From: a virus
Direction: 5' to 3' (one strand)
DNA length: 64,000 bases
IMG/VR virus record: IMGVR_UViG_3300035438_000194
Coordinates: 32,001-96,000 of that record
Below, piece after piece: positions 7,473 to 54,406 of this stretch; within the stretch, counting starts at the first letter, position 1; each line of letters starts with the position of its first letter. The position numbers and the translations under genes are program-made. Below the pieces are notes generated by a model. The model saw nothing but the letters and a program-made list of their open reading frames with translations. It was not told the DNA's origin and searched no databases.

Positions 7473-7504
7473 AAAAACTCCTTCCCTTTTTATTTTTTAC
7501 CTTA

Positions 7505-7512
7505 TATCTTTG
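7505..7512 (+). promoter_or_regulatory. Bacteroidota-type -7 promoter box TATCTTTG
   Basis: Exact TAnnTTTG match 12 nt upstream of ATG 7525; no clear -33 TTTG. Confidence 0.45.
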
Positions 7513-7524
7513 TAACTTAGTACT

Positions 7525-8079: not shown

Positions 8080-8100
8080 TAATTTAAAAACCAACATATT

Positions 8101-8232: not shown

Positions 8233-8238
8233 AACAAA

Positions 8239-9012
8239 ATGGCAGTAGCAACCTGTTCTTTTATAGATTGTAAGGGTGAGTTACCCGATATGCGTACAAC
8301 GGTGGCACTGACTCCTGCGCTATCAACTTTTCCTGCAAATCTTAATAACGTAATAGTTTATCTTGCTGAGTATCCTGACACTTGTTGGAGAGCTTTAAAA
8401 ACGGGAGACCCTGCGTTGCAATTGCCATACAATGTATTAAACGTATATACAGAATGCGCTGCTTGTATAGATGCTATACCCGTACCAGCTATAGTTAATG
8501 TTTATATTCTAGAAGACTGTTTAGAAGTTGAAGATCCTATATATTCTTTCTCATCAGCTCTTGAAGATGCTGTAGGTAAGGTTATAAAGATTGAAGGATC
8601 AGAACTTTGTTGGGGTGTATCAACAGTATTATTTGATGATCAAACTATTACTAATGTTGTAATAGCTACTAATAAAGCTGATGTTCCTCAGATATTTGCA
8701 GACTGTGAGTGCTGTCTTCCTACACCGGAACCAGCTCCTATTAAGTATACTAGAGTTATACCTAAGCCTGATAGAAAGTTTTATCAGATTAAGCAGAGCC
8801 AGTGTGATATAAAAGCTAACATACGATTTGCAGATGGATACTATAGACTATTCAAGCAATTAAAGTACGGTATAGATAGTCAATGTGATAATGTTAATCT
8901 AGAAAGATTGTGGATAAAAAAGAATCTATCTGATCTAGCGGTGATTAATGATCCTACAGCTTGTATTATAACTACTCCTGTTACTCCAGTTATTTGTCCA
9001 GAACCTAGTTAA
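8239..9012 (+). CDS. Cys-rich putative tail/fibre-associated protein
   Basis: Internal repeat (..DC...G.VI.....CW.......C..C); structural context. Confidence 0.55.
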   Translation: MAVATCSFIDCKGELPDMRTTVALTPALSTFPANLNNVIVYLAEYPDTCWRALKTGDPALQLPYNVLNVYTECAACIDAIPVPAIVNVYILEDCLEVEDPIYSFSSALEDAVGKVIKIEGSELCWGVSTVLFDDQTITNVVIATNKADVPQIFADCECCLPTPEPAPIKYTRVIPKPDRKFYQIKQSQCDIKANIRFADGYYRLFKQLKYGIDSQCDNVNLERLWIKKNLSDLAVINDPTACIITTPVTPVICPEPS

Positions 9013-9020
9013 TTAGATAA

Positions 9021-9037
9021 AAATTTTGTAAATTATA
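9021..9037 (+). promoter_or_regulatory. Putative late promoter motif AAATTTTGTAAATTATA (copy 1)
   Basis: Identical 17-mer at 11174-11190; both are intergenic and just upstream of starts. Confidence 0.55.
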
Positions 9038-9040
9038 TAT

Positions 9041-10507: not shown

Positions 10508-10511
10508 TTAA

Positions 10512-11060
10512 ATGGCTTGCTCAAATTGTAATTGTAATAATAACACATGTGGTTGTAAGGATACTCCCCTTACAACTGCACCTGTATATACATGCCCTCC
10601 CGATATAACTTGCCCGGATCCAACTCCGTGCTATGAGACTATCCAGGACACTTGTGTAAAACACAGTTCTCTATACTCTATATATCAGTTTGGTATTGGT
10701 ATAGCTAATAATGATTATTATCCGGTACTATCTGCAGGTGCATCTTTAGAAAATGCATATCAAGCATTATCAGTTGGAACTCTAAATACAGACTGTCTTC
10801 CTCCTATTAATGTGCATCCTAGTTACGTGGGTACAACAGCTATTATACTTAACTGGGAAGATACTGGTGCAGATAGTTACACTGTAGATTATGGTACAGT
10901 ACCAGGTGTGTATACAACTACACCTAGCTTAACAACTCCTACATTTACACTTACTCTTTTAAATTCTAATACCAACTATTATTTTAGAGTAAGAACAGAT
11001 TGTGATGGCGATAGTTCTATTAGCGCAACCATTATAGTAAAGACATTACCCGTATTATAG
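10512..11060 (+). CDS. Cys-rich fibre-associated protein with FN3 domain
   Basis: TTAIILNW...SYTVDY...LTLL.SNTNYYFRVRT.C FN3 signature. Confidence 0.7.
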   Translation: MACSNCNCNNNTCGCKDTPLTTAPVYTCPPDITCPDPTPCYETIQDTCVKHSSLYSIYQFGIGIANNDYYPVLSAGASLENAYQALSVGTLNTDCLPPINVHPSYVGTTAIILNWEDTGADSYTVDYGTVPGVYTTTPSLTTPTFTLTLLNSNTNYYFRVRTDCDGDSSISATIIVKTLPVL

Positions 11061-27883: not shown

Positions 27884-30800
27884 ATGGCGGAACAAAATAC
27901 TCCTGAGAAAGGTGCGCTTGTCACACCTGCTACTTTAAAATTGCAAAATGCACAAGGTGCTAAGTCACCTGTTAGTGGTGCTCCAGTAACTGGAGATATA
28001 AAAAGGGCAGCTGGTACTTCAGCAGGACCGCCTAATAAGCAGCCTGCTAACATGTCTAATCAGGAGAGGGCATTAGCACGTATGAACGGAGCTATGCTTA
28101 ATGCATATACTCCAGATACAAATAAGTATAATAAGATTACTACCTATAATGCAACGCATCATGGTAGAAACTTTGAAAGATACTATGCTCACCCTAAGTT
28201 TAAAGAGTTAGGCTTTAGTCCGTTTAGAGATAACGAGGCTCACTATAATAAGAACTCTTCTCTATGGGATGATGCACAAAGAGGTATTGTAACCGCTGGT
28301 AAGCTATTTGGTGGAGCATTTGTTGGGGCAGCTAAGAACTGGTCTAACCCGTTTTCAATGGAGCCTGATACAGAAGCTAGTGATGAAATGGAAAGACTTA
28401 TGTCTATTGGTTCCTCAAATAGAGGAGGCTTTGGCTCAAGTGTAATCAACTTTGGAGTTAACTCAGCTTACGGTTTTGGTGTAATGGGTGAGGTACTTGC
28501 TGAAGAAGCAGCGCTTGCATTAGGTACAGCTTTTTCTGGTGGTGCGTTAGGAGGGATGGCAGGTTTAAGAACCGCTTTAAATGCTAAGAAACTAGCAGGA
28601 GCATTTAGTTTAGGTAAAGCTGCAAAGTCTTTTACTAGTGCATTTAAAAATGTGACTAAGATAAATGAAGCACGTCAACTATGGGGTGCTGCAAAAGGAA
28701 TTGGTAAAGCAGCTGATTATCTTACACCGTTTAGTCAAACAAGATCTTTACTTACTCAAGCAGGTAGAGCTGAAGCTAAATGGGATAGTCTCGATAACAT
28801 GGCTAAAGTATCTAAAGGCTTTGGTTCATTCTACAGAGACTTACGTGAGATTAATGCTGTTACATATGAATCTAAATTAGAAGGTGGTGGAGTTCAGACT
28901 GAGGTTATTAACAACTTGATGTCTGACTTTAGAAAGAAGAACGGTAGAGACCCTAATGACCAAGAGGCACAGCTTATGTACCAACAAGGTCATAAAGCTG
29001 GGTACTTAAATGCTCAGATGAATGCTGTTGGTATTTATATATCTAACAAGATTGTATTAGACAAAGCATTAAAGGGTATACCGGGAATGGCTCAAGCTGA
29101 TAATGTAGCTAGAAGAACCATGAAAGGTACATTACTAAAGGTTCAGGACTGGGCTAAGAAAGGAGTTAATCCTTGGGAAGTTGCGTCTGGTATTAAGAAG
29201 TATGGTAAAGCTGCTTTCTACAAACAAACATTCAATCCAAAGAACTTAGCTAAAGGTGGTTTAGGTTACCTGTCTGCTAACTTAATGGAAGGTACTCAAG
29301 AGGTATACCAAGAAGCAATTGCTAATGGTATTACTAGTTATTATATGGACTCATTTAATAATCCATCTCGTGTAGGTGGAGCAGAGTTCCAAGCTAAGAT
29401 GTTAGGTGGTTTAAAGTCACAGATGAGTGGACAAGGTATGGAAACATTCTTATCTGGATTCTTGATGGCTGGACCAATGACTGCAGCTCAGTCAGCATTC
29501 TTTAAAGGAATGGACATGACTAGAAGAGCTAAGTTAAAGATGCAAGATAAAGCTTTTAAAGCTGATCCTGCTAATGCTGGTAAGGCAAGTCCATTTGAAG
29601 AACAACTCAATGCAGAGAAAGACTACGACAACAAAGTTGTAGATGCGTTGAATGATATGACAATGGATCCTAAGAAGTACTTCTCTGCTATTGAGCAGAA
29701 CGCAAGAACTCAGGCTGACTTAGAAAGATTAGGAGAACAAGCCGCAGCTGATGGAGACATGCATGCTGCTAAAAATATTAAGGATGAATCATTGACCAAC
29801 CACATTATTACAATGTTGGAGTCTGGTCACTTTGAAATATTCCAAGACCAACTTAAAGGTCTTAAAGAGTTAGATACTCAAGAGTTACAAGAAGCTTTTG
29901 ATGAGCCTGGTGATGCTAAGAAAACTGTAGCACAAAGAATTGATGCTGTACTTAAAAGAACAGAACAAATCAAAGCTACTTATCAAAAGTATCAAGAGAA
30001 AACAAATCCATTCTCAATGCGTGAAGACCCATTGAGCTATATGGCATTTGAACAAGCTAGAAATATTGCTATTAGAAATGATGTGACCTACCAGCGTACT
30101 GGTGAGCGTATGACTGATATCTTAAATCAGTTTAATAGTAATATGCCTTTCACAAATGCTGATGCTACAGACTTTACTAATTTGTTTGTAGTAGGAGGTA
30201 TGACTGAAGGCGGTAGTCCTAGAATAGGTTTAGGTAGTGAAATCAACTTATTGGATCAACAAATCCAAGGTTTAGATCCAGACATCCCAGAACAAAAAGC
30301 TGAGATGGACCGCCTTACTGAGAAGAGAGATAATCTTAAAAGTCTTAGCGGAACCTTACAAGCTTTTGCGTCTGCTTATAAAACAACACAGTCTGCTGCT
30401 CAAACTGAAGAGAAACATGCTACTAACATGGATACCTTCATTGAGACTGAGAAAGTATTCAAAGAAGCTTATGCTACTTATGTAAGAGGATTGGCTAAAG
30501 CTTCTGGTCAAACTGTTCTTGATTCAGCAATAGATGAAGGTTTCCAACAACTAGCTGACTTCTGGAAACTTAATGCAGATAGACAAGATGTAGCTAATGC
30601 TGTTAACATGATGCAGAATCCTGACATGTACAGAAACGCTACGGAAAAGATAAGAGATGCAATGGATAAAGCATTTGCAGCTCGTAAAGAAAGTTTAAAG
30701 AAAGCACTAGATGGCTATAAGAAAAAGCATTTAGTTAACGCTTTCTTTAATGACTTATTTGAAAAGTATAATGCGTTTGTAGAACCAGAGGAAGCTAATG

Positions 30801-36643: not shown

Positions 36644-36663
36644 TAATTTTAAAAAATTGAGTA

Positions 36664-39600
36664 ATGATTTGTAAACCTGACGGAACATACGAGATAGAAC
36701 AATCTGATATTGATAAAGTTAATAAATGGGTATATAAGCTTCTTAGCACTAGAGCTACTAGCGGTACCCGTACTTTTGACCTTAATGCTTTTGTTAAGTA
36801 TGTATATACCAGAAGTTTAGAAAAAACAAATGATGCTCAAAAGGCATTAACAATTGCTAGACAGGTTCCAATTGCTATTGATCTTGTTATCAGCGCTGAT
36901 CCTGATCTTAGAAAAGGATTAGCTGCTTTACAAGGTTACTCAAGAGATGCAGTTGATGCTATGGGAGATTCTTTCTTAGAGTCTATGACTGCTGTATCTG
37001 ATTTGGTTAATACAGACCCTACTAAGAAGGATCTTGCTAATACCTTAGCAGCAACTGCAAATGTAGAATTGTTACAACCTGTAACTCCTACAATACAAGC
37101 AGGTGCATTAGAGACTGGTAGAGAACTTGTAAGTGATTTGCCTTATACACCTCTCAGTACAACTGGTAATGAAGATATACCAGGTAGAGAATGGTACTAT
37201 GGTTTTATAAAGAATATTAGCAATCAAGATCTTGGATTAAGTAATACTGGTACTGCATCATACTTTGGTGTTAAAGATGGTATCCGCATTGCTATGGTGC
37301 TTGGTAGTCAGATTCCTGTAGATCAGTTATACTTGGATGTACAGAATCAAACTGACATTGAAGACATAAAAAAGAATCAGTTGTTTACTGTAGTTACAGA
37401 TAATGCTGGAAACTTTGTATACTTTAATGAGAACTATGAGGTAACTGATGCTGAGAATGGTAAACTAGTATACTTCCCTACAAGAACTATCCCTTCTATG
37501 AAGGTAGTAGATGGACGCAAGGTGTTTAATCTAGGTGAGCAATCTGACCGTACTGTACAAAGTATTAAGGATAAAGTGCGTAAAATAATGGCTGACGCTC
37601 CTTTGCTTAAAGAGAAAGATGCAAGAGAGCAAGTAGAAGTAGAGTTCCAAGGAGCCTACAGTCTACTTAGTGATATAGCAGATCATTTACAAAATAATCC
37701 TTCAGATAAGGTATTACTAAACTTGACTGGTATCAATAAGGGTACATTGCGCTATGACCAAGATACGGTTACTCCGCTATCCTCTATCAAGAACTTAGGC
37801 GCACTGAATCTTAGGATTAGAACAACTGGCGTTAGTTCTGAAGGAACCAAACAAGAATTTGAAACAAGAAGATATCTTGCTATTGATGGTGTATCAGACA
37901 AGATAGGATTCTCTATGAACAGCTTTAGTACAGCAATGGCCTCTAAAGTAGCTGACTTATTAGTCAATGATGTTTATACAGAAGATGGCACTCGTTTGTC
38001 TACAGATGACAAATACAAGATGATAAGAACCTTTGTACCATTGGGTACTACAGGTCTTACTATAGTTACGGCAAATAATGAAATCAAGATTGGTGGTAAT
38101 ACAGTAGACTTATCAGATAAAGCTGCAGCAAAAGCAGCTATAGTAGAATTCCTTACAAGAACCATTAAAGTAAATGATTCAAAAGGGAACGAGATAGAGA
38201 TTAAAAACCAACTGCGATTTGACGGAAAGACTTACGAGGCTTCTAACGGAGTCATTGATGATTTTACTATTACACCAGCATCAGATGGAACATACACAGT
38301 TGCTAGCAATTTAGTTGACTACAAGACTTGGCTTAAGGATAATGCTTATATCAAAATACAACTTGACTCTAACGGTAACGTTACACAAGTTAATGGTTAC
38401 TTTGAATTCAATGCAAGTCCTGAGACAAGAAAAACTATAGCAAGTAGACAAGTTGAGCAGATGGCTGTACCTAAGAAAGGTGGAGATCTTTCTTTGAACG
38501 GTTTGACTGCACCAACAGTTGAGGATAAAGAAAACGCATTAGCTAAAATTAGAGAAAGAGCAAAGGGTAGAAACAACAAACCTTTGTTCTCAATGCGTCA
38601 TGATTCATTAGCTGCAAACAAGGCTCAGATTAGACGAGGTAAGAAGTGGTTTGATACTACTGAAATTAAGTTTAAAGATGCAGACGGAAAAGTTGTAACT
38701 AAGAAACTATCAGAGATTGTACCTTATGAGGTTATGTTTAACGTGATCAACAGCAATGGTGATATACGTGCTACATGGACCCGTAATGGTATTACCCTTT
38801 TCAATGGATCAGACTATACAGACCTTTACCATGAAGCATGGCATGGCTTTACTCAGTTGTTCTTAACTGCTGATCAGAAGACTGCTTTGTATAATGAGGT
38901 AAAGAGTCTTAAAGAAGACATTAAGTACTATGATCATAAGGCTGGAGAATGGAAGACCATGAACTCCAAAGACTTAGATTTTAGCGACAGAAATCATATT
39001 ATATATGCTGAAGAATATCTAGCAGACAAGTTTAGAAAATATTCAATGGACAGATCTGCACCAAGTGCTAAAGTTAAGTCCATCTTCAGAAAGATATGGG
39101 ATGCTATTAAAGCATTGTTTAGCAGAAGCACTAAAGAATCTGCGGCTAACCCATATAACAACACATTAATAAATCAAGCATTTGACCAGTTATATACTGG
39201 TAACTTAGTTGACTATACATTTGATCAAGCTAACATTCAGTTTGGTCAGTTAAACTATGGTATAACAGCCATTGATAAAGATTTAAACGGTATAGAAGGT
39301 CTTAGTGTTGAAGACTCTCTTGCTATATCAGAAGGTATAAACCACTACATAGCTGAGTATATTGATATGGCGGTAGCTGGTCTAGTATACGGTGATGCTA
39401 ATCCTGCATATAGTTCTTTGATCCTAACGGACGCTGAGTACAAAAAGGAAGCATTATTTTACGCTAAGGATATGTTACAGGTTCAGCTTGATAAACTTTT
39501 AGCTGAGTATGGTACAAAGGTTTCCTACGAGAAGCAAATAGCTGAGAGACAAATCAAAACATTAACATTTGCTATTGATCAGTTTGGTGATCTAGATGAT

Positions 39601-42600: not shown

Positions 42601-45600
42601 GACTTTGAAGTAGGTAGCACTGATGATGAAAGATTAACTGCTTGGAATGCGCTGCCTGATGAGAAAGCTAGACTAAAAGCATCTAAAGCATATACCCTTA
42701 AGAGAAACTATCAAAAGGCATTTAAAGAACTATTTGATACAGCTAAAGACAAGTTGAAGATGGAACTTGGTTACAAGGATCCTAAATCAACTTCAAAAAC
42801 AGAAGGTCTTAACTTAGAGAAACTTATGGCTTTTGTAGAGGAGCAACTCCTTAACAGAGAGACCTTGTCTGAGTATGAGTTAGACTTTTTGCAAATGAGC
42901 CCTAGCGGTCAGTTGATTTATCCGCAAGACTTTGGTTCAGATCCATCACAGATTGAAAAACTTATATCATCATTGGTCAATAAGAGAATTACTGACCAGA
43001 TGTCTAGAGGTGAGTCTTTCATCCAAGTGTCTAGTGTTGGTTTTAGAAAAGCTGATTTGGCAGCAGATTCTAGTTTATTATTCTACCGTATAGGACCTGA
43101 TGGTAAAACGTTACCAATGCAGGTTAAGATACCATTGATGGGTGACTTTAAAAACCTATTGAACCATGTGGACAATGATGGTAAAAAGATTGGTACCCTG
43201 GCTCGTTTAAATGAGTTGATCAAGGATGAGAAGTGGATGAATGAGAACCGTGAAATGCTTACTATGGGCGGTGACCGTATTCCAATTCAGGGTCACAACT
43301 CTATGGAGGTTATGGAAGTAGCTGAGTTCTTTGATCCTGCTGGTGGTAACATGATGGTATTACCATTAGAGATTGTTGCTAAGACCGGTGGTGACTTTGA
43401 CATTGATAAGCTTATCTGCTTGATCCCTGTTATCAAAAACAACATGGGTGTAGTAGAACTATCTAAACCCACTAAGACCCGTAAGGTACTTAAGACTATT
43501 GTTAAGGAGAAGAGTGACTTGTATAATGAACTTAAGGCTTTAAGAAAACAATATATTAAAGAAGAACTTACACCAGAGTTTAGAGAAGAAATTAGTAAAC
43601 TTGAAGATGAGCAAAGAGCAGCTCAGCAAGAGTTTAATGAAAATTATATTAATGATTACTATGTAGGCGGATCATTAGATAAGTATATGAACCGTATCAA
43701 CAGTGCTCAACAAACTATTGATGCTATATATGATCAACTCTTTGAAGACAGGAAAGAAGTATTCCAAGGTGAATTTGATCAGTATATTGATGAGGCTCAA
43801 CCTATACTTAATAAGTTACGTGAGTTAAACAGACAAGAAGATACATTCAGTCCCGATGCCTATCAGAATAATCTGATGCAAGCAATGAATGATATATTAC
43901 TAAGAGGTGAAAACTTTACTAACCTTACACTTCCTAATGATACAGAGACCTATACAGCTAAGGGTGGTATTGTTGATGAATTTACAAGTGTAAACAGACC
44001 TTATCAAAGAAGTAATAATAAGACTAATAACAGAAGAAAGAAAATGTCTCCTACCCGTATCATGGAGAATCGTTACAACAATGTTAAAGCATTTGCAATG
44101 AGTGCGGGTAAGAGCGGTGTAAGTTTGGGTGCTAAGACTAACAAGATCTTTATAAAATATAAAGAGGTTGGTTTGTACTTTGAACCTACTTATACAGCTA
44201 TTAAAGGAAACAAGCAGTACCCTATTAAGCAAAGATTACTAGTAGATCATAAGACTGTTTTAGTTAATGGTAAACGAGCAATCTCTATGGGGCATGGTAA
44301 GGATGTGAATGGTAAAGATATTTCAGATCAGATCTCTCAGTTGATGAATGGTTACTTAGACGTAGCTAAAGAAGACTGGGTATTTGATATCAATGCTGTA
44401 AAAGAATTAGAACCTGAGTTCTTATTATTGTTACAGGCGGGTGTTGGTCCTAGAATGGCAACAGCTTTAATATCACAACCTTTAGTTAAGAAGTATGTAG
44501 AAGCTATCCGTAAGAGAAGTAATGCATTCTCATTAGCTGTTAGTGATAAAGAAACTTCTTTAAGCTTTGCTAAGTATGAAGCCTTGTTAGAAATATTGGA
44601 CAAAAACATGCCTGATATATTCAACTATGCTGATGCACCTGTAAATCAGGAAACTGGAAATATTATAACTCCATCAAATGAAAAGTTATTGTTTGATGCG
44701 CAAAGGTTTTTAGGTAATCGCGGAAACTTTAATATTGATGATCTTATAGCTAATGCTAAGAAGGGTCCTGATTCTGGAGTCACTGGATATGATATAGAGG
44801 CATTTGCTCACTTCATGGAGATCATGGATCTTACTAAAGGAGACAAAGAACTTAAGCAAAGCATAGATATTGACACTAAGAAGCAATTGACTGCGTTAGA
44901 TGCGACTAAGAAAATTAATGCGCTTAAAGACCTATCTGGTAGATTCCCTAAGAGTAAGATTAAAAGTCTTCTGGATGACACATATTTATCTAACTTTAAG
45001 ACTCAGGGTCTTCTGCTTGAAGCTATTTCAAAAGTGTTACCATTACGAGGTTTAAAATCTTTAAATGACTTTGCATACGATCTTAGTAAGAATAAAAAGT
45101 TTGATGATCAGAAAGCAAGAGAGAACTATGAAAAGAACTTGATTGCTGACTTTCCTTCTTACATTGCAGCTAATGCTAGACCACGTGTAACTAGTAATGA
45201 TGCAAGTTATAGAGGTGTTGAAATTGAACAAACTATACCAATCAATAAGCAAACATTACTTAAGTTTGGAGCTATCTATATGGATGGTGCTCTTCAAGTA
45301 GACCAGACTCAGATTGACATTGACTTTGATAACAGAGCTTATACTAAAGATGGTTATGGAGACGGTCTTCTTGCTAAACTACCACCTACCGTATTCTCAG
45401 AATATGATAAAGGTAAAAAGACTGCTAGAAACTTATACAGAGCATTTGTATTTGAAAGAGAGATAGCACGTGCAGCATTCCCTTATACTGAGATAGAAGG
45501 CACTGATGATCAGTTTGAGTTATTTAGAGCAGAGTTTCAAATGTATCAAGTAATGCGTATGAACACCCCTGGTGGTGCAAAGCTTGACCTAGTGGATCAG

Positions 45601-48600
45601 TATGAAGAGTTTATCAGAAACAAAGCATTATATAATGCAGGAATTGATGCTGGTAGATTTATGTCTATGCCTAGCATGGGTATCTTTAGTATGTATGATA
45701 CTTTCTCAGCTATACTTAACCAGGCAAATATTCAAGGTGTAAATCTAAAAGAACAGTTCCCTGTATTAGAAAGCCTTAGACAAACTGAAGTAGAAGGTAA
45801 GAAGTTTAACTTTATTACTTTAGCTAGAAAGGTTAAAGATGTAGATGATCGTACATCATTTACAGCACAGTTGCTTAGCTTGATGAATCCTAATGTCCGT
45901 AAGGTTGGTAATGAAGGTTTCAATCTTGCTATCAGTTCTTTCTTTGCTAAGTTCCCAGAGATGGCATTTGCCCAAGCTGGTAACAACAGTGCAAGTGGGT
46001 TATACATTGGTTCAATCGTAGACGCTAAGTCTATAGCAGTTGCCCAAGCGGACAACTTAAATGAGTACATTGAAGCCCTTAAGGATCCTGAAACAGCTAA
46101 AAACATCTTAAATGACTACGCTAGAAAGTTTGAGCAAAAAGCTCCTTACAAAAACAAAGCAGCTTATTTTAACTATAACAGTAACAAGGATATCACTGAT
46201 TATATTCCTGAGGCGCTACCAGAAGATGCATTATCAATTGCAGAATCAGAAGTAAAGAAAGAGCCACACTGGAGAAAGGATGAGGCTATGGCCAATGCTT
46301 CAACAAAGGCAATTGCTAAAGCTACACAGCCAAAAGATGTTACTTATAGAAGTTCAACCAAAGCTTATCTAGAAGCCCTTGGCGGAGCATCTACAGACTT
46401 TACAAGTTCTGATGCTGTATGGATATTTGGAGCAGGTGCTTGGAGTGCTACAGCAAAGAATATCAAAGAAGACTTTGATAATTACTATGTACCTATGATC
46501 AATAGAGCCTTAGAATCAGGTGTCACTACCTTCAATATAGGTACAGCATCTGGTATTGATACTATGGCAACAGACTACTTAAAGAGTAAAGGCTTTACTG
46601 TAGAGTCACAGGGTGAGTGGAATAAACTTACTGGTGGACCGGTAACAGCTGTTGAAACAGCTAGAACCATCTATGATAAAATTAATAAAGATCAAACAAC
46701 GCAGTCAGAAAATGTAGTATTACCTAAAGATTTAGAAGACAATAAAATATATTCAGGTAAGGAATTCTGGAATAAAATTGTACCAGAAGCGAGGGATATG
46801 TTTGATGATAAGGTAAATCCAAAAACAGGTCAGACAAGACCAATGATTGTTGCGTATAGAGGTAGTCATAAAAAAACGTTTTTGCAGAACTACAAAGATG
46901 GCCTTACTGTAGGTAATCCTTTTGATTGGCAAGTTGAAACAGGCACTGGGGATGAGAAAGGTATAAAGTCTACTAAACGATTTATACATTGGATGATTAC
47001 CGGAGATAACATGGGGACAGCTGCAGCTACTCCAGAGTACAGACAAGCTATCATAGATGATATTAAGTCAGGTAAGATAAAAGGCAGTCCTATTCTTTAC
47101 TATGCAGAGAAGAACTATGCTACTCACGCAACAGCTTTAGACTATCTGATCAATAAGCATGACTGGGATGCTCAAGCTCCCGGTGCTCGTAAAACTTATA
47201 CTGGGAAAATAACTAGTTTGCAACCTAATCAAATATTTGTATTTGGTTCCAATGAAGGAAGTTCTAAAGGAGGTAAACCTACACATGGATCAGGTTCTGC
47301 TAAAGATGCTAAAGACAAATTTGGAGCTATTCAAGGTCAAAGCAGAGGAGCTCAAGGACAGTCTTATGCAATTGTAACTAAGAAGTTCTACGATGTAAAA
47401 AAGTCTAGCACTCCTCAAGAAATCATAGAAGAGATCAAAGGTTTATATGCATATGCTGAACAAAACTCTGATAAAGATTTCTTAGTATCTGACTACTCTG
47501 AGAGTAACCTTAATGGTTATACCGGGCAAGAGATGGCAGATATGTTTAATGCTGCTGGATCTATACCTTCTAACATTGTGTTTAATCAAAACTTTGATAA
47601 GCTATTACCTAGTACTCAAGCTCCTAGAGCTACTGTAAAAGGACCCGGTCCAGAGACTAAGATGAATATTTATGCCGGTACAGGAGAGAATGCTGAATTA
47701 AGTAACTTTGCTAATAGACCTTTTTTCCCTACAACTAATGGATTGGCACAAGCTAGATTTAATAATGTAGAAAGTGCATATCAAGCAGCTAAGATTCTAT
47801 TCTATACAGATAAAAGTGATAAGGCTACACTTGAATATAATGCATCTCTATATAACCAACTTAAAAATACCAATGGTTCTCAAGCTAAATCTATAGGTAA
47901 AAATATTAGATCTTTAAACATTCAAGATTGGGATGCTAATTCTTCTAGAATAATGAAGGAACTGTTAAAACAGTCCTTTGAACAAAATCCAGATGCTCTT
48001 GCTAAACTTCTTGCTACAGGTAATGCTACTCTTACACATACACAAGATAGAGGTAAGTGGGCTACAGAGTTTCCAAGATTGCTTATGGAGGTAAGAGAAG
48101 AGCTAAGTCCTTCTCAACCACAAGCAGCAGCTGGACCAACTGTACAAGCTGCCCAAGCTGCACCAGGTCTTATCATTGACATAAGAGGTCCTAAGGAACT
48201 AGTTGATTATGAGACTGGTGATTTGATACCTGTAGCTAAAGTATACAAGCAGACTCAGTTCATTACAAAAAATGGAGACGGAGTGGAGATTGCTTATACT
48301 CTTCCTGAACAACTTGCTAAACAAATAATGGATGAGAATCCAAACAATGTATTTGTATTTGATTGGTTCCGTCCTCACAGTACTGGTAAAGAAAACACTG
48401 CTGCAAGAAACAATACTAGACAAGCTTGGAGATCAGGTTTAGCAACTGGACAAAGTTTTGGTATCACTACTAGAACCTTTGAAGGAAAAACACCAAGTGA
48501 TGTACAGTTTGAAGGTGTTAAAAAAGTTATTGATGAGCAGATTGAACAACTTGTACAACTCCGTGACTCAGGTAAGATCATTACCTTCCCTTCAGATGGT

Positions 48601-48855
48601 ATAGGTCAGAACTTTAAAGGCTCAGGTGCTGATCGAATCTTTGTATATTTGTCTAAGAAGCTTCTTGAGAATTTTGGTTACAGAAATCCAGCGTTTGATA
48701 ACATAAGCTTAGTACTTGGACCTTTAGAAGTAACAGGTACAGACTATACGCAAGACTTCTATAAGAAGATGGCGGATGCTGAGTCTGGAGAAAAGGCTCA
48801 GACAGTTACAGACAATGAAGTTAGAGAACATATTAAAACGTGTAAAATAAAGTAA
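36664..48855 (+). CDS. Giant virion RNA polymerase (crAss-type, DFDID) with N-terminal zincin and C-terminal accessory domains including NADAR
   Basis: RIPIQG (43276) and GGDFDIDK (DFDID at 43393-43407); ADAQGW; KYSLMPL; HEAWH at 38830-38844. Confidence 0.9.
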   Translation: MICKPDGTYEIEQSDIDKVNKWVYKLLSTRATSGTRTFDLNAFVKYVYTRSLEKTNDAQKALTIARQVPIAIDLVISADPDLRKGLAALQGYSRDAVDAMGDSFLESMTAVSDLVNTDPTKKDLANTLAATANVELLQPVTPTIQAGALETGRELVSDLPYTPLSTTGNEDIPGREWYYGFIKNISNQDLGLSNTGTASYFGVKDGIRIAMVLGSQIPVDQLYLDVQNQTDIEDIKKNQLFTVVTDNAGNFVYFNENYEVTDAENGKLVYFPTRTIPSMKVVDGRKVFNLGEQSDRTVQSIKDKVRKIMADAPLLKEKDAREQVEVEFQGAYSLLSDIADHLQNNPSDKVLLNLTGINKGTLRYDQDTVTPLSSIKNLGALNLRIRTTGVSSEGTKQEFETRRYLAIDGVSDKIGFSMNSFSTAMASKVADLLVNDVYTEDGTRLSTDDKYKMIRTFVPLGTTGLTIVTANNEIKIGGNTVDLSDKAAAKAAIVEFLTRTIKVNDSKGNEIEIKNQLRFDGKTYEASNGVIDDFTITPASDGTYTVASNLVDYKTWLKDNAYIKIQLDSNGNVTQVNGYFEFNASPETRKTIASRQVEQMAVPKKGGDLSLNGLTAPTVEDKENALAKIRERAKGRNNKPLFSMRHDSLAANKAQIRRGKKWFDTTEIKFKDADGKVVTKKLSEIVPYEVMFNVINSNGDIRATWTRNGITLFNGSDYTDLYHEAWHGFTQLFLTADQKTALYNEVKSLKEDIKYYDHKAGEWKTMNSKDLDFSDRNHIIYAEEYLADKFRKYSMDRSAPSAKVKSIFRKIWDAIKALFSRSTKESAANPYNNTLINQAFDQLYTGNLVDYTFDQANIQFGQLNYGITAIDKDLNGIEGLSVEDSLAISEGINHYIAEYIDMAVAGLVYGDANPAYSSLILTDAEYKKEALFYAKDMLQVQLDKLLAEYGTKVSYEKQIAERQIKTLTFAIDQFGDLDDLRNNKKGTLAFFNKKTGYLDLTTYKTDDNTDDATEEDDDDSGRPTKSKDRTGMYAGNGTELSGLERMDSILKFAFSNITEIGPDGIKRNQMGLPVMASSKTIFNMVSSLTENLNDREEMYRAIWNKSEEKERNGEPTPMAQMLKQFLSKVGEPKDATSGIAQLFWNKVFHGLRTDRLTSIQVNINKTKYGHEVIVGETDSSDKAILRGWQDAFVFNNKSDYLIVDPKTNEKYLDLKALNAKYGNIGPGQPIESIDQINPYQFFKDFGILITPTNKNLKAIRDQDIIRTLLRFRLAPLMRIPDLKVTSYNSLFMENHPYIDAKGEKSVLQEQGGVMNKLLALESKANPKYSDYMRLFGADARSERSNPSGPGNTLIALNKAGNFNNIISRPELSQYNPKKNPAVKTSVIFNKMFPSLGARDQRYSLDYQAMLGTQYIDKRAGIDTLVTSLASAESDEQVAYLRDFFSFSLHGAAEAFKHADKNMAYIVQLLGPQMFYIPIADFAKGTGEGNTGKQAANKIITGYIAAELERIKKVLASKELTSGEKASDIILYTDSEATVKDEDGLIREVKYKTLADVGVEFTVFDDILSDDLKARLINDKSIQTVEDFLKLLSGDKALEQSIHRELNTYFAKLVKEDRDQLESFEFFKGANKAKSLSTIKNRSFKNSSLSTDEIFDASVLHYVYASFIHKMEMSTLFYGDAVMFQHDKDEHMKRIPTFFATGKIPVFDDTMENWLLSSAGGYYKSEFFKNSGLTQPTSNQLVTRQLNTAILEDAIESISKEAFDQMVEAYLKNNPGATEAEAKAKYKSYRNMKSADAQGWISFDAYRALEIRLDNWSPAKEVVYQEVLKGEISDPEILETFFPVKKMQYAGPMGTENFAANAVHKYSLMPLIPTIIKDTELEKLHNKMVSQNIAYSVMHSGSKVASIGNGNKLSKFYTEPNGNRTLAFTAPDYQFSSSVIYLDYFKEQLVTHDTAKGKVKFPTQKRALVTSGLDEFGVPTDFEVGSTDDERLTAWNALPDEKARLKASKAYTLKRNYQKAFKELFDTAKDKLKMELGYKDPKSTSKTEGLNLEKLMAFVEEQLLNRETLSEYELDFLQMSPSGQLIYPQDFGSDPSQIEKLISSLVNKRITDQMSRGESFIQVSSVGFRKADLAADSSLLFYRIGPDGKTLPMQVKIPLMGDFKNLLNHVDNDGKKIGTLARLNELIKDEKWMNENREMLTMGGDRIPIQGHNSMEVMEVAEFFDPAGGNMMVLPLEIVAKTGGDFDIDKLICLIPVIKNNMGVVELSKPTKTRKVLKTIVKEKSDLYNELKALRKQYIKEELTPEFREEISKLEDEQRAAQQEFNENYINDYYVGGSLDKYMNRINSAQQTIDAIYDQLFEDRKEVFQGEFDQYIDEAQPILNKLRELNRQEDTFSPDAYQNNLMQAMNDILLRGENFTNLTLPNDTETYTAKGGIVDEFTSVNRPYQRSNNKTNNRRKKMSPTRIMENRYNNVKAFAMSAGKSGVSLGAKTNKIFIKYKEVGLYFEPTYTAIKGNKQYPIKQRLLVDHKTVLVNGKRAISMGHGKDVNGKDISDQISQLMNGYLDVAKEDWVFDINAVKELEPEFLLLLQAGVGPRMATALISQPLVKKYVEAIRKRSNAFSLAVSDKETSLSFAKYEALLEILDKNMPDIFNYADAPVNQETGNIITPSNEKLLFDAQRFLGNRGNFNIDDLIANAKKGPDSGVTGYDIEAFAHFMEIMDLTKGDKELKQSIDIDTKKQLTALDATKKINALKDLSGRFPKSKIKSLLDDTYLSNFKTQGLLLEAISKVLPLRGLKSLNDFAYDLSKNKKFDDQKARENYEKNLIADFPSYIAANARPRVTSNDASYRGVEIEQTIPINKQTLLKFGAIYMDGALQVDQTQIDIDFDNRAYTKDGYGDGLLAKLPPTVFSEYDKGKKTARNLYRAFVFEREIARAAFPYTEIEGTDDQFELFRAEFQMYQVMRMNTPGGAKLDLVDQYEEFIRNKALYNAGIDAGRFMSMPSMGIFSMYDTFSAILNQANIQGVNLKEQFPVLESLRQTEVEGKKFNFITLARKVKDVDDRTSFTAQLLSLMNPNVRKVGNEGFNLAISSFFAKFPEMAFAQAGNNSASGLYIGSIVDAKSIAVAQADNLNEYIEALKDPETAKNILNDYARKFEQKAPYKNKAAYFNYNSNKDITDYIPEALPEDALSIAESEVKKEPHWRKDEAMANASTKAIAKATQPKDVTYRSSTKAYLEALGGASTDFTSSDAVWIFGAGAWSATAKNIKEDFDNYYVPMINRALESGVTTFNIGTASGIDTMATDYLKSKGFTVESQGEWNKLTGGPVTAVETARTIYDKINKDQTTQSENVVLPKDLEDNKIYSGKEFWNKIVPEARDMFDDKVNPKTGQTRPMIVAYRGSHKKTFLQNYKDGLTVGNPFDWQVETGTGDEKGIKSTKRFIHWMITGDNMGTAAATPEYRQAIIDDIKSGKIKGSPILYYAEKNYATHATALDYLINKHDWDAQAPGARKTYTGKITSLQPNQIFVFGSNEGSSKGGKPTHGSGSAKDAKDKFGAIQGQSRGAQGQSYAIVTKKFYDVKKSSTPQEIIEEIKGLYAYAEQNSDKDFLVSDYSESNLNGYTGQEMADMFNAAGSIPSNIVFNQNFDKLLPSTQAPRATVKGPGPETKMNIYAGTGENAELSNFANRPFFPTTNGLAQARFNNVESAYQAAKILFYTDKSDKATLEYNASLYNQLKNTNGSQAKSIGKNIRSLNIQDWDANSSRIMKELLKQSFEQNPDALAKLLATGNATLTHTQDRGKWATEFPRLLMEVREELSPSQPQAAAGPTVQAAQAAPGLIIDIRGPKELVDYETGDLIPVAKVYKQTQFITKNGDGVEIAYTLPEQLAKQIMDENPNNVFVFDWFRPHSTGKENTAARNNTRQAWRSGLATGQSFGITTRTFEGKTPSDVQFEGVKKVIDEQIEQLVQLRDSGKIITFPSDGIGQNFKGSGADRIFVYLSKKLLENFGYRNPAFDNISLVLGPLEVTGTDYTQDFYKKMADAESGEKAQTVTDNEVREHIKTCKIK

Positions 48856-48856
48856 A

Positions 48857-51800
48857 ATGGCAAATAGTTGTGCATTTGGTAAGGATTGGGATGAGCTCGT
48901 AGAAGCGGTAGGTTTATTCCAAGCAAGTAAGGATTATATTGAGAACAATGGAGAGGTTCGTACCCCTGATGAAGTAATAGCTAAGCTAGAAGCTAGAGGG
49001 GAATGGGCTGAAGAATCTACTCAGGACTTTACCAGACCAATGCTAAGAGGAACTGAGATGGACATGTTAGCTGAAATGGCTAACACTATCCCTGGTTTCT
49101 CTACTATATTTAATCCAATACACCTATCAAAGGCTGCTACAGACATGCGTAAAGGAAACTCTACGCTAGACTTTACTATAGGCAACCTAAGTTCACGTCT
49201 TGGTATACCATACCAGATGGTTGATGAGGTAGAAGCACAAACTATATTGGATAACTCAGGTACTCCTTATACAGGAGAAGCTGGTTTCTATGTAGGTGGT
49301 GTTGTATACTTTATCAAAGACAAGGTAAATACAGAGGTGGCATTCCACGAGTTTGCTCACCCATTTGTAAGAGCTATTGCAAAAGAGAACAACGTGTTGT
49401 TTGAAAAGCTGCATGCAGACTTACTTCTAACACCTGAAGGCAGACTCTTAGAGAAACTAATGAGCAACCTTCACCCAGAATTAGAAGCGGGTGCAGAACT
49501 ATACAAAGAGGAAATGTTGGTACGAGCTTTAACAAAAGCATCTGTTGACAAGAAGAATAATAAGAAACCATCTTCTGGCTTTGTTAAGTTCCTTAAAGAC
49601 CTATTGTATGCAATCAAACAGGTTTTTAGAAAGTATGTAGGTAAATCAGTTGCAATCTCTGAGCTTACACAAGACACAACTCTAGATGAGTTAGCTGATA
49701 TTTATACAGAAGCTAATATAAACTTTGATATAGAGTTAGTTAACCAGAAGGATGTTGTTGCATTTATTAGAGAGACCCGTACTCAAGTTGATGATATAGT
49801 TAATATACTTAATACAGATGAGGGTGCTCAAGTTATCAAGAAGGGTCTAGATAACATCAATCAAGTAGTTAATGAGCATACTGACCGTCTTATAAAGAAT
49901 AAGAACTTAGATGAAATGTTAGCTATTCTAGAGACAGGATTTGACCAAGCTGACTTACAAATTATACGTTCTAATATAACTCAGTACAGTAATCTTATAA
50001 ATGCAAAGTTTACTACTCTTGCAGAAGAGAACAATCGTGTTCAACAGCAATCAGCAGCTTTTGTAAATACTGTTTTCCAGATCAAAGCAATGGCTGATAA
50101 GATGATTCTGCATATGCAGGAGTTATCTAAAAGAGAAACTGATCCTAGTAAGGTAAAGAAGTTCTACTACTATGAGCAATTGACTAATGACTGGAAGAGA
50201 ACAATGGCTCAGATCCGTATTGACATGAGTAATGCTGGTATCCTAGAAGGGCCAATGCTTGATGTTATAGGATCTATTGAGACTAAGTTACAAACAGCTG
50301 ATACAATTGCAGGACGTGTGCATCTTGAGGGCTCATCTGAATTACTTGAGAGTGTACTAGAACCACTATCTAAAGAAGTAGATAGATACTATAAAGAAAT
50401 TATTGAAGAGTTAGAAAAGAAAGGTGCTCCTGATAGAATCTTGAACCGTTACAAAGCGGAGTATGATAGCGCTAAACTTGACAAAGCTACACTTAAGAGC
50501 TGGTTATCAGGTGAGCAGGGAGACACAAACGTAATCAGTGCATGGATGGAGTCATTCATGAACATACAAGACCCGGTTATATTTGGTCTTGCATCTTACG
50601 TAAACAACAATATGATGGATGTTATGACTACTGTACAACAGAAGTATAACAGACAGTCACAAGATATTAAAGAACTTCTTGATTCAGTTGGTTACAATCC
50701 TAATAACCCAAAAGGGATATTAGATCTTGTAGGTTATACTGAGAAAGAAGGTACATATGGTAAGGACGGTAAGTTTGTAGAGAAAGAAAGAAAAGCTTTC
50801 ATTCACCACGTTAAAGGGTATGACATAGAGATCACTCGTAAGAATGATCAGATTAAACAAGCTGAGCTAGAGTTCAAGAAGACTGGAGACAGTACTGACC
50901 TAGACAGATTATATATTGAACGTGAAAACTTACTTAAAGATTTTCACAGGGAATATTCAGAGGAAGTTTATGCTAAGGATGATCTTCTTAGCAAAGATGA
51001 GATAGGTAAAAAGGCCTATCTTGAACGCTTTAAGATTCTTAGTAAGATACAGAACTTAAATGCTACACTTGAAAGTGCGGCAGACAGACATGATCCAGAC
51101 TACCAGATGTCATTAGCTACATACTGGCAAGAGTATAAGCAATTATATTCTTTATCATATGCTGATGGTACTCAAAAGAAAGGTGATGATCTTGATGTTT
51201 CTGTAAGACTTAGAGAACATAGAGAAGCAACTAGAAAGTTCTATGAGTGGGTACCAAGAAAAGGTATGTTCCAAGGGGCTCTGAAGGCTTATGAGCAACA
51301 GATCCTTGATACTAATCCTAGTATTAAATACGGTGGCCCTGAGTTTAACAGACTACGTGAAGAGTGGCTTAACAATAATACAGTTGTTGCAATTAAACCA
51401 GAGTTCTTTAGAGACCGTCAAGTTATCTTAGATAGAATTAATGAACTGAAGGCTAAGTTACCACAGTCTGTACAAGACCAGCTAAAGTTAGATGAGATCC
51501 TTAAGGAGATGAATGACCAAATCTCTGCTTACAGAGATGACAGCGGTCAGCCTGAAGGTACTGCAATGAGTGATACAAAACTTGCTCGATTGAAGGAACT
51601 ACAAGAGCAGTTTGAATTGTATAAAGATGACCTTCTAACAGTACAAGGTGTAACTAAAGCTGATATTGCGTTTAAGAAACAGATTGATGCAGCTATAGTT
51701 GAGTATACACTTAGAGGTAAAGGAGAACATCCGTTAAGTGATCCTGATGTAGCACTACGCTATGCTGATATTATCAATGATATGAATGACTTTGGTTTAT

Positions 51801-54406
51801 CTGAAGAAGATGCAGCAGAGTTAACAGAGCTATATCAGAAGTTGTTTAGCATCTCAGATAAAGAAGCTACAGATGACTATATAAATGTTGTCAATGCTTT
51901 AATGCAACCAGGTAATGACCCAGATGATTCAATTGACGGTTCTTATTTGTATGATACATTTAACTTAACATCATTTGATAAGAATACTATTGATGAAGTA
52001 TTGACTGAAGAAGTAGCTAATACTTTAATGGGTCAGAGTTCTGCATTTAAGAAGTGGTTCTTAGCTAATCATATCAAGACCGTGTTTGTAACAAACAGAG
52101 GTGACGAGATTGTAAAGTATAAAAGAACAGCAGCTTGGAGCGTAACCAGACCGGTTGATGTAAAGTACTATGAGACTACAGATATCCTAGATGAAGTTGG
52201 TAATGTAGTTGAAACTATACAGCGTAAACCAAAGATTGATTACTTCAGAAGAAGGGTTAAAGAGGAGTATAGAACCAAGCGTGTTACAATGCTTGAAGCT
52301 TTGGAACAAGGAGACTTAAGCTTAGCTAATGTTGATCACAATGGTAACTGGTTACCTAAAGCAGATAGTAAGTACCGTAATGAAGAGTACTACAATCTTA
52401 GAAACAGAGGTGGTAATGAGTTTAAGCTATTGACTACACTGCTTACGTATCACTTGGAAAATCAACAAGGTCTTAATAGAAACTCTAGACTGGGTGTATT
52501 CATTCCAAGATACCGTAAAGAAAATAGAGAACTTTTAGTAGAAAGAGGAGGAGCTCAGAGTAAGTTATCAAGCTGGGCTAGCAATGTTAAAGCTAGCTTT
52601 AGTAGAGCTAAAGATGACATGGAAGATGGTTACAATCCAGAGATTGACACAACCTTCATTAACTTAGACTTGTTTGATAACGAGATTACAGGTATTCCTA
52701 TTTCTGGTAAGTATGACTTAGAACTAGATGAGACTTCAAATGATGTTCTTATGGGTATAATGCGTTATATGCAGAGTGCTGAAAGACACAAGAAGTTAAT
52801 TGAAATCAGTCCTGAAGTGCGTGCAATTCAGAAAGTTGTTAATGGTTCTGAAGGAGCTATTAAAGATATGACTAAGGCTAGTAAGTCTGACTTTATTGAA
52901 CGTAACTTAATGCGTTATGCAACTAGAAAAGGAACATCAGTAAGAGCCCAGACTGTTAATGCTTTTATAGAAAGAGAGTTTGAGGGTAAGACACAAGCTG
53001 GTGCATTAGCAGATCTAACAGGTCTTAATAAGACAGTAAACAATTTACTAGGTCTTTCTTCTATGGCCTTCTTTGCATTGGATATACCATCAGCATTGAA
53101 GAACTCATTAGGAGCAAGATTCCAGTCCATCATACACGCAGCTGGTGGTAAAGACATCAGTGCTATGAGTTTAGGTAAAGGTACCCTATGGGGTAATATT
53201 ACTTCAGCAGAGGTAAGCTTCCAGATTTACAGATATGGACCTAAGAGTCTTAATGTACAGTTGTATGAAGTGTTTGACCCGGACCAAAAGTTTGCGGACA
53301 AAGAAGGTAAGTTTGCAGAAGGTATGTCTAGAACATTCTCTAAGGACGTTATGTCTGGTAGCTGGTTAACCAATACCAGAGAATGGACTCAGATGAATGC
53401 ATCCCTAGGTTTATTTGGTGGGCTTATGTATCACCAAATGGTAGATCAAACTATTGATGGCGTAACTAAACAGATTCCATACATAGAAGCATGGGAAGTT
53501 AAAGACGGTCAACTTACAGTTAAGGAAGGTATTGATAAGGATTGGGATCTTGGGGGTAAGAACTTTAAGATGATGCGCGCTAAGGTACAAGGTGTAAACC
53601 GTAAACTTAACGGAGCATACTCCAAGTTTGATAAGACACAAGGTGAAAGATACTTACTAGTAAGATTAATATCATTCTTAAAGCGTCACTTTACAAGAAT
53701 GTTCTTGAACAGATGGGGCTACAGAGGAAACTTCCTTGAGCCAAAGGCTAGATGGGATGTAGGTTCAAATGAAATGGAGATAGGTTACTATACACAATCA
53801 ATAGCCTCTATTGTAAATGGTTTTAAGTCTGGAGGTAGAGACTTCAAGTATATGACCCAGAGAGAGAAGGTAGCATTCAAGAAGTTTGCTACTGAATTAG
53901 TTCTTGTATTAGCTGCAGGTATGCTTGTTAAACTTATCTTTAGCTATGATGAGGATGACGAGGATCGTTTTGAGAAGTTGAGACAGAAGTCAGGACCGTT
54001 ACCAATGCCTTGGGCAACTGAATCACCATACAAGTTTAACTTTAGTGGGTATATGTCTAACCAAGCGCTGTTCTTATCTAAGGCTACACTTAATGAGAAC
54101 TCAGCATTCTTACCGTTTCCTAGTATGGGACTAGATGACTATAGAGCAATCTTAGACTTTAACTCTATTGCGTTTGGTAATACTCTATCTAACTACGTTA
54201 AGATAGTAGATAACTTAGCAGGTATGATAACAGGTGATGAAGGTGCCTACTATAAGAAAGATGTAGGTCCTTATAGCTGGCAGGATGAAGGTTCTGCTAA
54301 AGTATGGAACTATCTAGGTAAGAGTATTGGTTTATCCGGTTCTCAAGTTGACCCAGCATTACGTCTTAAGAATTTAGAATCAATACAAAACAGATTAAAA
54401 GGTTAA
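48857..54406 (+). CDS. Giant virion/ejection protein (1849 aa) with N-terminal zincin-like HEFAH motif
   Basis: HEFAH at 49346-49360 with downstream EE; helical body; hydrophobic C-terminal helix; third gene of the RNAP triad. Confidence 0.7.
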   Translation: MANSCAFGKDWDELVEAVGLFQASKDYIENNGEVRTPDEVIAKLEARGEWAEESTQDFTRPMLRGTEMDMLAEMANTIPGFSTIFNPIHLSKAATDMRKGNSTLDFTIGNLSSRLGIPYQMVDEVEAQTILDNSGTPYTGEAGFYVGGVVYFIKDKVNTEVAFHEFAHPFVRAIAKENNVLFEKLHADLLLTPEGRLLEKLMSNLHPELEAGAELYKEEMLVRALTKASVDKKNNKKPSSGFVKFLKDLLYAIKQVFRKYVGKSVAISELTQDTTLDELADIYTEANINFDIELVNQKDVVAFIRETRTQVDDIVNILNTDEGAQVIKKGLDNINQVVNEHTDRLIKNKNLDEMLAILETGFDQADLQIIRSNITQYSNLINAKFTTLAEENNRVQQQSAAFVNTVFQIKAMADKMILHMQELSKRETDPSKVKKFYYYEQLTNDWKRTMAQIRIDMSNAGILEGPMLDVIGSIETKLQTADTIAGRVHLEGSSELLESVLEPLSKEVDRYYKEIIEELEKKGAPDRILNRYKAEYDSAKLDKATLKSWLSGEQGDTNVISAWMESFMNIQDPVIFGLASYVNNNMMDVMTTVQQKYNRQSQDIKELLDSVGYNPNNPKGILDLVGYTEKEGTYGKDGKFVEKERKAFIHHVKGYDIEITRKNDQIKQAELEFKKTGDSTDLDRLYIERENLLKDFHREYSEEVYAKDDLLSKDEIGKKAYLERFKILSKIQNLNATLESAADRHDPDYQMSLATYWQEYKQLYSLSYADGTQKKGDDLDVSVRLREHREATRKFYEWVPRKGMFQGALKAYEQQILDTNPSIKYGGPEFNRLREEWLNNNTVVAIKPEFFRDRQVILDRINELKAKLPQSVQDQLKLDEILKEMNDQISAYRDDSGQPEGTAMSDTKLARLKELQEQFELYKDDLLTVQGVTKADIAFKKQIDAAIVEYTLRGKGEHPLSDPDVALRYADIINDMNDFGLSEEDAAELTELYQKLFSISDKEATDDYINVVNALMQPGNDPDDSIDGSYLYDTFNLTSFDKNTIDEVLTEEVANTLMGQSSAFKKWFLANHIKTVFVTNRGDEIVKYKRTAAWSVTRPVDVKYYETTDILDEVGNVVETIQRKPKIDYFRRRVKEEYRTKRVTMLEALEQGDLSLANVDHNGNWLPKADSKYRNEEYYNLRNRGGNEFKLLTTLLTYHLENQQGLNRNSRLGVFIPRYRKENRELLVERGGAQSKLSSWASNVKASFSRAKDDMEDGYNPEIDTTFINLDLFDNEITGIPISGKYDLELDETSNDVLMGIMRYMQSAERHKKLIEISPEVRAIQKVVNGSEGAIKDMTKASKSDFIERNLMRYATRKGTSVRAQTVNAFIEREFEGKTQAGALADLTGLNKTVNNLLGLSSMAFFALDIPSALKNSLGARFQSIIHAAGGKDISAMSLGKGTLWGNITSAEVSFQIYRYGPKSLNVQLYEVFDPDQKFADKEGKFAEGMSRTFSKDVMSGSWLTNTREWTQMNASLGLFGGLMYHQMVDQTIDGVTKQIPYIEAWEVKDGQLTVKEGIDKDWDLGGKNFKMMRAKVQGVNRKLNGAYSKFDKTQGERYLLVRLISFLKRHFTRMFLNRWGYRGNFLEPKARWDVGSNEMEIGYYTQSIASIVNGFKSGGRDFKYMTQREKVAFKKFATELVLVLAAGMLVKLIFSYDEDDEDRFEKLRQKSGPLPMPWATESPYKFNFSGYMSNQALFLSKATLNENSAFLPFPSMGLDDYRAILDFNSIAFGNTLSNYVKIVDNLAGMITGDEGAYYKKDVGPYSWQDEGSAKVWNYLGKSIGLSGSQVDPALRLKNLESIQNRLKG

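Follow-up and report, generated by a model that had tools for sequence, protein, structure and literature searches.

Three consecutive genes of a crAss-like phage encode giant proteins in which nearly all of the few cysteines lie at the ends that face the next protein in gene order, and this terminal-cysteine rule holds throughout the Crassvirales. The genes are located in a stretch of 64,000 nucleotides (positions 32,001 to 96,000 of IMG/VR virus record IMGVR_UViG_3300035438_000194; the whole stretch is termed the window) of a complete record, 113,846 bp long and bounded by direct terminal repeats. They code, all on the + strand, for protein B (27884..36643; 2919 amino acids [aa]), protein C (36664..48855; 4063 aa), a crAss-type virion RNA polymerase (RNAP) with a long C-terminal extension, and protein D (48857..54406; 1849 aa), with gaps of 20 nt (B/C) and 1 nt (C/D) between the genes. 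The reading that we favour, with moderate confidence, is that disulfides join B, the RNAP and D head to tail, B being the first and D the last member of the chain.

Four of five cysteines lie at ends that face each other

The sole cysteine of B, Cys2917, is residue −3 from the C-terminus (...GLQECPF; codon 36632..36634, +). The RNAP begins with MICKP, which holds Cys3 (codon 36670..36672, +), and ends with ...KTCKIK, where Cys4060 is residue −4 (codon 48841..48843, +). The sole cysteine of D is Cys5 (MANSCAF; codon 48869..48871, +). Together the three proteins have 5 cysteines in 8831 aa, 4 of them at junction-facing ends (residues −3, 3, −4 and 5), and the outer ends, the start of B (MAEQNTPEKG...) and the end of D (...IQNRLKG), are free of cysteine. 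The remaining one, Cys2252 of C (codon 43417..43419, +), is the only internal cysteine and is found 10 residues past the start of GGDFDID. An initial annotation, made by eye, had counted these five cysteines and placed the fifth beside the RNAP active site. The computed count showed that none had been missed, and the total of 8831 aa, the codon coordinates of the terminal cysteines and both empty outer ends were exact. Cys2252 does adjoin the active site (DFDIDKLIC); its position, however, is not conserved (Cys in 3 of 77 unique relatives, usually Met, Ile, Thr or Val).

The other 31 open reading frames (ORFs) of the window hold 162 cysteines in 11,460 aa (1.41%), 17 of them in the muzzle protein alone, and terminal cysteines among these ORFs are confined to one Cys-rich gene cluster. 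At 1.41%, ∼125 cysteines would be expected in B, C and D, and 5 were observed. If the cysteines were placed at random, the probability of finding at least 4 of the 5 in the 20 junction-facing positions would be 1.3e-10.

The rule is conserved among relatives and cultured crassviruses

Two IMG/VR scans yielded 91 loci with an RNAP 24–45% identical. At each junction of consecutive ORFs of at least 600 aa, we asked for a cysteine no more than 10 residues from the end on both sides. Such a pair was present in 116 of 122 junctions (96 of 102 unique ones). The six exceptions were the outer A/B boundary in the window and in L088, a collinearly broken RNAP ORF in L065, two loci where the cysteine of B lies at −19 or −21, and a boundary to an unrelated gene. 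The C-terminal cysteine is 1–9 residues from the end and the N-terminal one at positions 3–6, the latter in all unique junctions of the relatives; the upstream protein retains its C-terminal cysteine in every relative whose upstream and RNAP genes are separate. In the relatives' alignments the Cys4060 column is nearly invariant (alignment A2) and Cys5 of D is invariant (alignment A3). Over 81 non-redundant loci (466,610 aa), 240 of 293 cysteines are junction-facing and 53 lie elsewhere (0.011%). The terminal cysteines are kept from 45% down to ∼22% identity, and hidden internal cysteines, looked for in the triads, were not found. We conclude that the rule is solid and order-wide.

In L065 (4136–14508) and L010 (3857–16211) the RNAP frame is broken in two, with no cysteine where it breaks. 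The pieces line up with the unbroken gene, L010 having an intact twin in L015, and the breaks probably reflect frameshifts or assembly errors, not true splits.

Cultured phages with a homologous RNAP follow the identical rule, and their block likewise comes after the muzzle gene. In phi14:2, cysteines are found at C1797 of 1797 in gp67, at C3 and C2179 of 2180 in gp66 (PDB 6VR4), and at C3 in gp65. In crAss001, they are C2339 of 2341 in gp47, C5, C1334 and C2404 of 2412 in gp50, and C5 in gp49. The window proteins are far larger (2919/4063/1849 aa vs. 1797/2180/1421 aa in phi14:2) and have extra domains. In p-crAssphage LMMB, where the downstream protein is fused to the RNAP, the upstream protein has C1956 of 1957 and the RNAP fusion begins MSC.... 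In crAss002, gp32 has C2019 of 2020, and an in-frame MSCTPS is found 32 codons inside the annotated start of gp33 (L019:12194–12300). The annotated start puts the cysteine at position 35 and the internal Met gives Cys3, so that the annotated start may be too early.

Lone near-terminal cysteines also occur at the C-end of virion proteins encoded farther upstream, in p-crAssphage LMMB (L020:89–3588; 264 aa, ...YRCGGHKR, and 861 aa, ...QSCR) and in crAss002 gp30 (L019:1499–3172; ...FRCGGKKKIA). The protein that follows each of these has no N-terminal cysteine.

Cysteines are gained and lost as pairs

Proteins of 4100–4800 aa in a dozen loci are B–C fusions by homology, their residues ∼250–1000 matching separate B proteins of other loci (E to 1e-35). 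These fusions have no cysteine at the fusion point or at the N-terminus and have kept the C-terminal cysteine that faces D, which in several of them is the only cysteine of the protein. The reverse case is seen in p-crAssphage: C and D are fused, both cysteines of the B/C junction persist, and there is none at the C-terminal end.

Proteins inserted between C and D (754, 583, 506, 396, 328, 190 and ∼170 aa; full range 169–754 aa) have exactly two cysteines, one per end. The small links of 169–190 aa (L048:14055–14567, L055:12603–13112, L057:14059–14568 and L080:7703–8275) have them at positions 3–4 and second or third from the end, and had no Pfam match. In L073 (14383–15366), a 328-aa link between RNAP and D, with Cys3 and Cys325 only, matches the ART-PolyVal domain (PF18760, 42.9 bits; cut-off 31.2); this putative ADP-ribosyltransferase is a candidate injected effector. 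At the outer ends, the first members of the chains have no N-terminal cysteine in any of 28 cases (small ORFs counted), and a C-terminal cysteine was found in 4 of 48 last members, all of them in chains interrupted by another gene. What pairing predicts of the sequences was therefore found on all three counts: (i) joint loss on fusion; (ii) joint gain on insertion; and (iii) no cysteine at outer ends.

The rule acts on proteins rather than on DNA or translation, because the crAss001 gp47 gene lies on the opposite strand from gp50/gp49 and yet its product retains the C-terminal cysteine, because the gaps at the junctions vary among loci (−4 to 68 nt, or as much as 1.3 kb where genes are inserted), and because endonuclease-like genes between C and D in some loci leave the flanking terminal cysteines intact. 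Both TGT and TGC codons are used at the junctions. ORFs of this interposed kind are found at L054:12361–13041, L059:15682–16275 and L043:10024–10641; two of them start ...GSCIY(I/V)I and are GIY-YIG homing endonuclease-like.

A solved precedent and the predicted C/D termini

The same signature is found in a phage of another family. In the cryo-EM structure of cyanopodophage A4, Cys1715 of gp27 forms a disulfide with Cys5 of gp26, the C-terminal helix of gp27 being docked on gp26, and the bond is a staple of the pentameric pre-ejectosome ring (PNAS 2025, PMC12002296). The genes of gp27 (1717 aa) and gp26 (1114 aa) follow one another in the Anabaena phage A-4L record, and each protein has a single cysteine (C1715, residue −3, and C5); as in the window, lone cysteines lie near the facing ends of consecutive ejection proteins. 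No match was found between B, C or D and A-4L gp26–28 (blastp, E 0.01). The two sets are thus related in mechanism rather than by family. A4 has a single junction and no RNAP, and belongs to another host and phage family (Saffermanviridae), whereas the window has two junctions that involve the RNAP.

At the C/D junction, both cysteines are predicted to lie in flexible tips that adjoin short helices. The end of C (48253..48852, +) comprises a conserved alpha/beta domain (alignment A2), behind which come a linker modelled at low confidence and a last helix, with Cys4060 at its end. In the AlphaFold2 model of the last 200 residues the mean pLDDT is 77, and the tail has 53–61. The alpha/beta domain matched DUF7831 weakly, and a fold search with it returned nothing at E ≤ 0.001. 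The N-terminus of D is predicted to have Cys5 in a tip (pLDDT <50), followed by a three-helix module, a ∼50-residue linker and a zincin-like domain.

The last 200 aa of C and the first 400 aa of D were co-folded with custom alignments. The pair scored 0.46 and the best of 3 controls 0.00; at least 38% of the contacts agree between runs, and the partner pLDDT is at least 56. In the calibration, 58 of 80 solved complexes and 2 of 110 mismatched pairs attained the co-fold mark, but at scores of 0.60 or less only 7 of the 80 solved complexes did, and so did both of the passing mismatches. The support from the co-fold is weak. The flanks of the C-terminal cysteines are rich in Lys (21.8% vs. 9.1%) and Pro often comes right after the N-terminal cysteine; no conserved His, Asp or second Cys was found beside the terminal cysteines in the alignments of relatives.

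A proposed head-to-tail disulfide chain and its rivals

We propose that B, C and D, as cargo in the capsid of a crAss-like phage, would have been almost cleared of cysteine, as is often so in ejected phage proteins, except for one thiol within a few residues of every end that has a neighbour in gene order. Each protein would dock by its C-terminal tail onto the N-terminal tip of the next, and the thiol pair would oxidise to a disulfide once the particle leaves the reducing cytoplasm. The product would be a linear B–S–S–C–S–S–D chain of 8831 residues and ∼1 MDa, nearly unbranched because the links lie at the extreme termini. With such links the cargo proteins would stay together as a set whose order and number are fixed. 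Each protein might also pull its successor into the narrow tail channel, and the chain would be broken on reduction in the cytoplasm of the host. We infer the disulfide chemistry by analogy with phage A4, and the timing of oxidation and the reductive release are likewise conjectural. A disulfide is the most economical reading, since the A4 precedent shares the signature and there are no conserved metal-ligand residues at the thiols. Disulfides as such do occur in crAss001 virions, in the tail and portal vertex (PMC10172136). The phage is present in lake-water and freshwater metagenomes (9 runs from 9 studies, possible sources left out, each with at least 64% of the sampled words), an outside medium where thiols can plausibly oxidise. 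Passage through the tail as a single thread would be a further step, which we put forward tentatively.

Several points weigh against this proposal. The covalent chain is a hypothesis, although a well-founded one, and neither the crAss001 virion study (PMC10172136) nor the gp66 preprint mentions the cargo cysteines. Phage A4 is an analogy, because its proteins have no sequence similarity to B, C and D, and what its bond holds together is a static ring, from which threading as a chain does not follow. At the C/D junction the co-fold support is weak, and at the B/C junction a specific docking surface is not evident, because the C-terminal region of B is conserved in its closest relative only. In gut crassviruses oxidation would have to be late or absent, because virions assemble in a reducing cytoplasm and the habitat is anoxic. 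A search of the 113,846-bp genome for a phage thiol oxidase or thioredoxin found none, the Erv1/ALR search being silent in all control genomes too and hence uninformative.

The alternative that survives best accepts the disulfides and differs from the chain in purpose only: the bonds would staple a static cargo complex, a pre-ejectosome, in the capsid, and the proteins would not pass the tail as one thread. This is what the A4 bond does, stabilising the alternating gp27/gp26 ring above the portal, and the models show folded modules that may dock, one at the C-terminus of C and one in the N-terminal part of D. Cysteines at the extreme ends, the strictly linear order, free outer ends and freely inserted small proteins are simpler to understand as a thread. 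We regard the staple as a possible but rather unlikely account.

It is improbable that the terminal cysteines bond elsewhere, as homodimer staples or with a portal-proximal or capsid-lining protein, and that there is no chain. In crAss001 virions, disulfides between subunits are indeed numerous among proteins other than these, and the cargo proteins are presumed to be packed in several copies each (PMC10172136); lone C-terminal cysteines are also present in the other upstream virion proteins of p-crAssphage and crAss002 described above. Such bonding would leave unexplained the absence of an N-terminal cysteine in all 28 first members, the Cys-free true last ends, the joint loss on fusion with the next junction kept, and the one cysteine per end in every inserted protein. 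Pairing of B with D, an RNAP closed on itself, homodimers and third partners were each considered, and none predicts both the joint gains and losses and the empty outer ends.

A head-to-tail connection of another chemistry, by a shared metal ion with nearby side chains, a thioether or a thioester, is less probable still. Conservation, gain and loss in pairs and outer ends free of cysteine would be expected from it just as from the disulfide chain; the anoxic gut favours a metal bridge over a disulfide, and the Lys-rich C-terminal flanks fit a reactive thiolate in either chemistry. Without a conserved His, Asp or second Cys, however, two thiolates would make a poor Zn site, and the sole solved case with this signature, A4, is a disulfide. 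One Zn(Cys)4 knot that unites all four ends is ruled out, as chains with 2, 6 and 8 terminal cysteines exist.

That the cysteines are a by-product of DNA or translation signals (coupled translation, read-through or frameshifting), as the tight packing of the window genes might suggest, or a chance outcome in Cys-poor proteins, is almost certainly wrong and, as far as sequence can tell, already refuted by the chance of ∼1e-10, the variable cysteine offsets and gap lengths, the use of both codons and the opposite strand of crAss001 gp47. CaaX-like and lipobox-like motifs were ruled out as well, the cysteine offsets ranging from 1 to 9 and no signal peptide being present.

The RNAP and its C-terminal extension

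C is by its matches a crAss-type virion RNAP of the phi14:2 gp66 family. It matches phi14:2 g066 (tblastn, E 8e-9) and gp66 (blastp, E 8.6e-22 over 1179 columns), its core also matches RNAP genes of some 40 crassvirus records, and the family profile (alignment A1) matches PDB 6VR4 (6vr4_A, E 9.7e-22). The catalytic DFDID motif is encoded at 43393..43407 (+, aa 2244–2248), and D444–D448 of this motif (A1 numbering) are invariant. According to the literature, the cargo-block proteins of phi14:2 and crAss001 are found in virions and the RNAP acts on early genes; an RNAP that is both packaged and, once ejected, at work on early genes is known from phi14:2 only.

The extension holds a NADAR domain (47686..48051, +, aa 3675–3796; PF08719, E 7e-13, 49.6 bits vs. 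a cut-off of 35.1), one of the extra domains that distinguish the window proteins from those of phi14:2. An ADP-ribose-processing activity is possibly injected with the polymerase and might serve in counter-defence.

Proteins B and D

In position and in part of its sequence, B corresponds to crAss001 gp47 (blastp, E 6.6e-8). Neither B nor D had a match in Pfam or PHROGs, and single-sequence searches of B, C and D against PDB sequences gave none. The initial annotation had the chain led by a membrane-inserting protein. This is unsupported, because a Kyte–Doolittle 19-mer scan found no hydrophobic segment in B, and the sole strongly hydrophobic segment of the three proteins (53882..53953, +; aa 1676–1699, 19-mer maximum 2.13), a possible membrane helix, lies near the C-terminus of D.

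Homologues of D come after the RNAP in relatives. D itself could not be linked by sequence to phi14:2 gp65 or crAss001 gp49 (blastp, profile), and the profile of its N-terminus matched neither. A HEFAH motif (49346..49360, +, aa 164–168), whose residues H164, E165 and H168 are invariant in alignment A3, marks a putative zincin-like metallopeptidase domain. The predicted fold resembles M34/PPEP-type zincins (1yqy_A, Z 8.2, rmsd 4.3 over 160 residues; Pro-Pro endopeptidases, Z 6.3 [6fpc_A] and 5.9), at Z values that are common for unrelated chains. In relatives, P-x-P usually comes right after the N-terminal cysteine of D (MSACPLP, MNSCPIP), and the putative protease domain of D is most like Pro-Pro endopeptidases and M34 zincins (Z 6–8).

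Genes around the block

Upstream of the block and on the same strand are genes for a major head protein (PHROG match) and the crassvirus muzzle protein (13362–18506; PF25731, E 3.2e-28), which places the RNAP gene in the late structural and cargo block of a crassvirus genome. Between the muzzle gene and B, four Cys-poor proteins of 397–943 aa are encoded. Two of them (19739–22294 and 25048–27879) have two non-terminal cysteines each, as C-x5-C (C237/C243 and C128/C134), and the other two have none. The consecutive genes at 5797–11060 encode proteins with 3–6.5% Cys, some with Cys-rich ends (...LACGCGCGSC, MACSNCNCNN...) and one containing an fn3 domain. They contrast sharply with the Cys-free cargo and probably serve as external fibres or in receptor binding.

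Prior description and meaning

The ejection proteins of N4-like phages (Schitoviridae; virion RNAP gp50/gp71, with gp51/72 and gp52/73) are Cys-suppressed, which has been ascribed to passage through the oxidising periplasm (PMC11445570). A giant virion RNAP ejected with helper proteins and strong cysteine suppression are shared with the crAss-like set. The Schitoviridae proteins are essentially Cys-free throughout, whereas the crAss set retains exactly the junction-facing cysteines, four conserved ones in the window. The initial annotation knew of no description of such linked ejection proteins. For the Crassvirales this stands, as our literature search found no paper that describes a terminal-cysteine rule; one such junction, however, has been published for phage A4 (PMC12002296). 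A C-to-N disulfide between ejection proteins is thus known, and what appears to be new, by comparison with A4, is a modular chain of several links that includes the virion RNAP.

We consider it possible, although still doubtful, that the terminal cysteine pair is a general coupling tag in Crassvirales, by which a cargo-block protein with a cysteine at both ends would be spliced after translation into one thread, delivered before the DNA and reduced apart on arrival. If so, shifting genes into or out of the chain would let phages gain, discard or fuse the effectors that they inject, and the small links of 169–754 aa, among them the one with an ADP-ribosyltransferase domain, would be candidates. 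The polyvalent proteins of phages and conjugative elements are reportedly huge, injected, and made of many effector domains in series. The ART-PolyVal link of a relative and the NADAR domain of the window RNAP recall them, but there it is the peptide backbone that connects the domains, and the crAss cargo would consist of separate gene products apparently joined after translation.

Crassviruses include the most abundant phages of the human gut. An open question for them is how a megadalton of folded cargo, including a polymerase of 2000–4000 residues, passes through a narrower tail channel in the right order and number. If the tether is true, it would be a simple physical answer to ordered cargo delivery, it would explain how evolution can split, fuse and interrupt the cargo genes freely while their function persists, and it would provide a sequence rule to recognise injected cargo, small effector enzymes included, in the genomes of uncultured phages.

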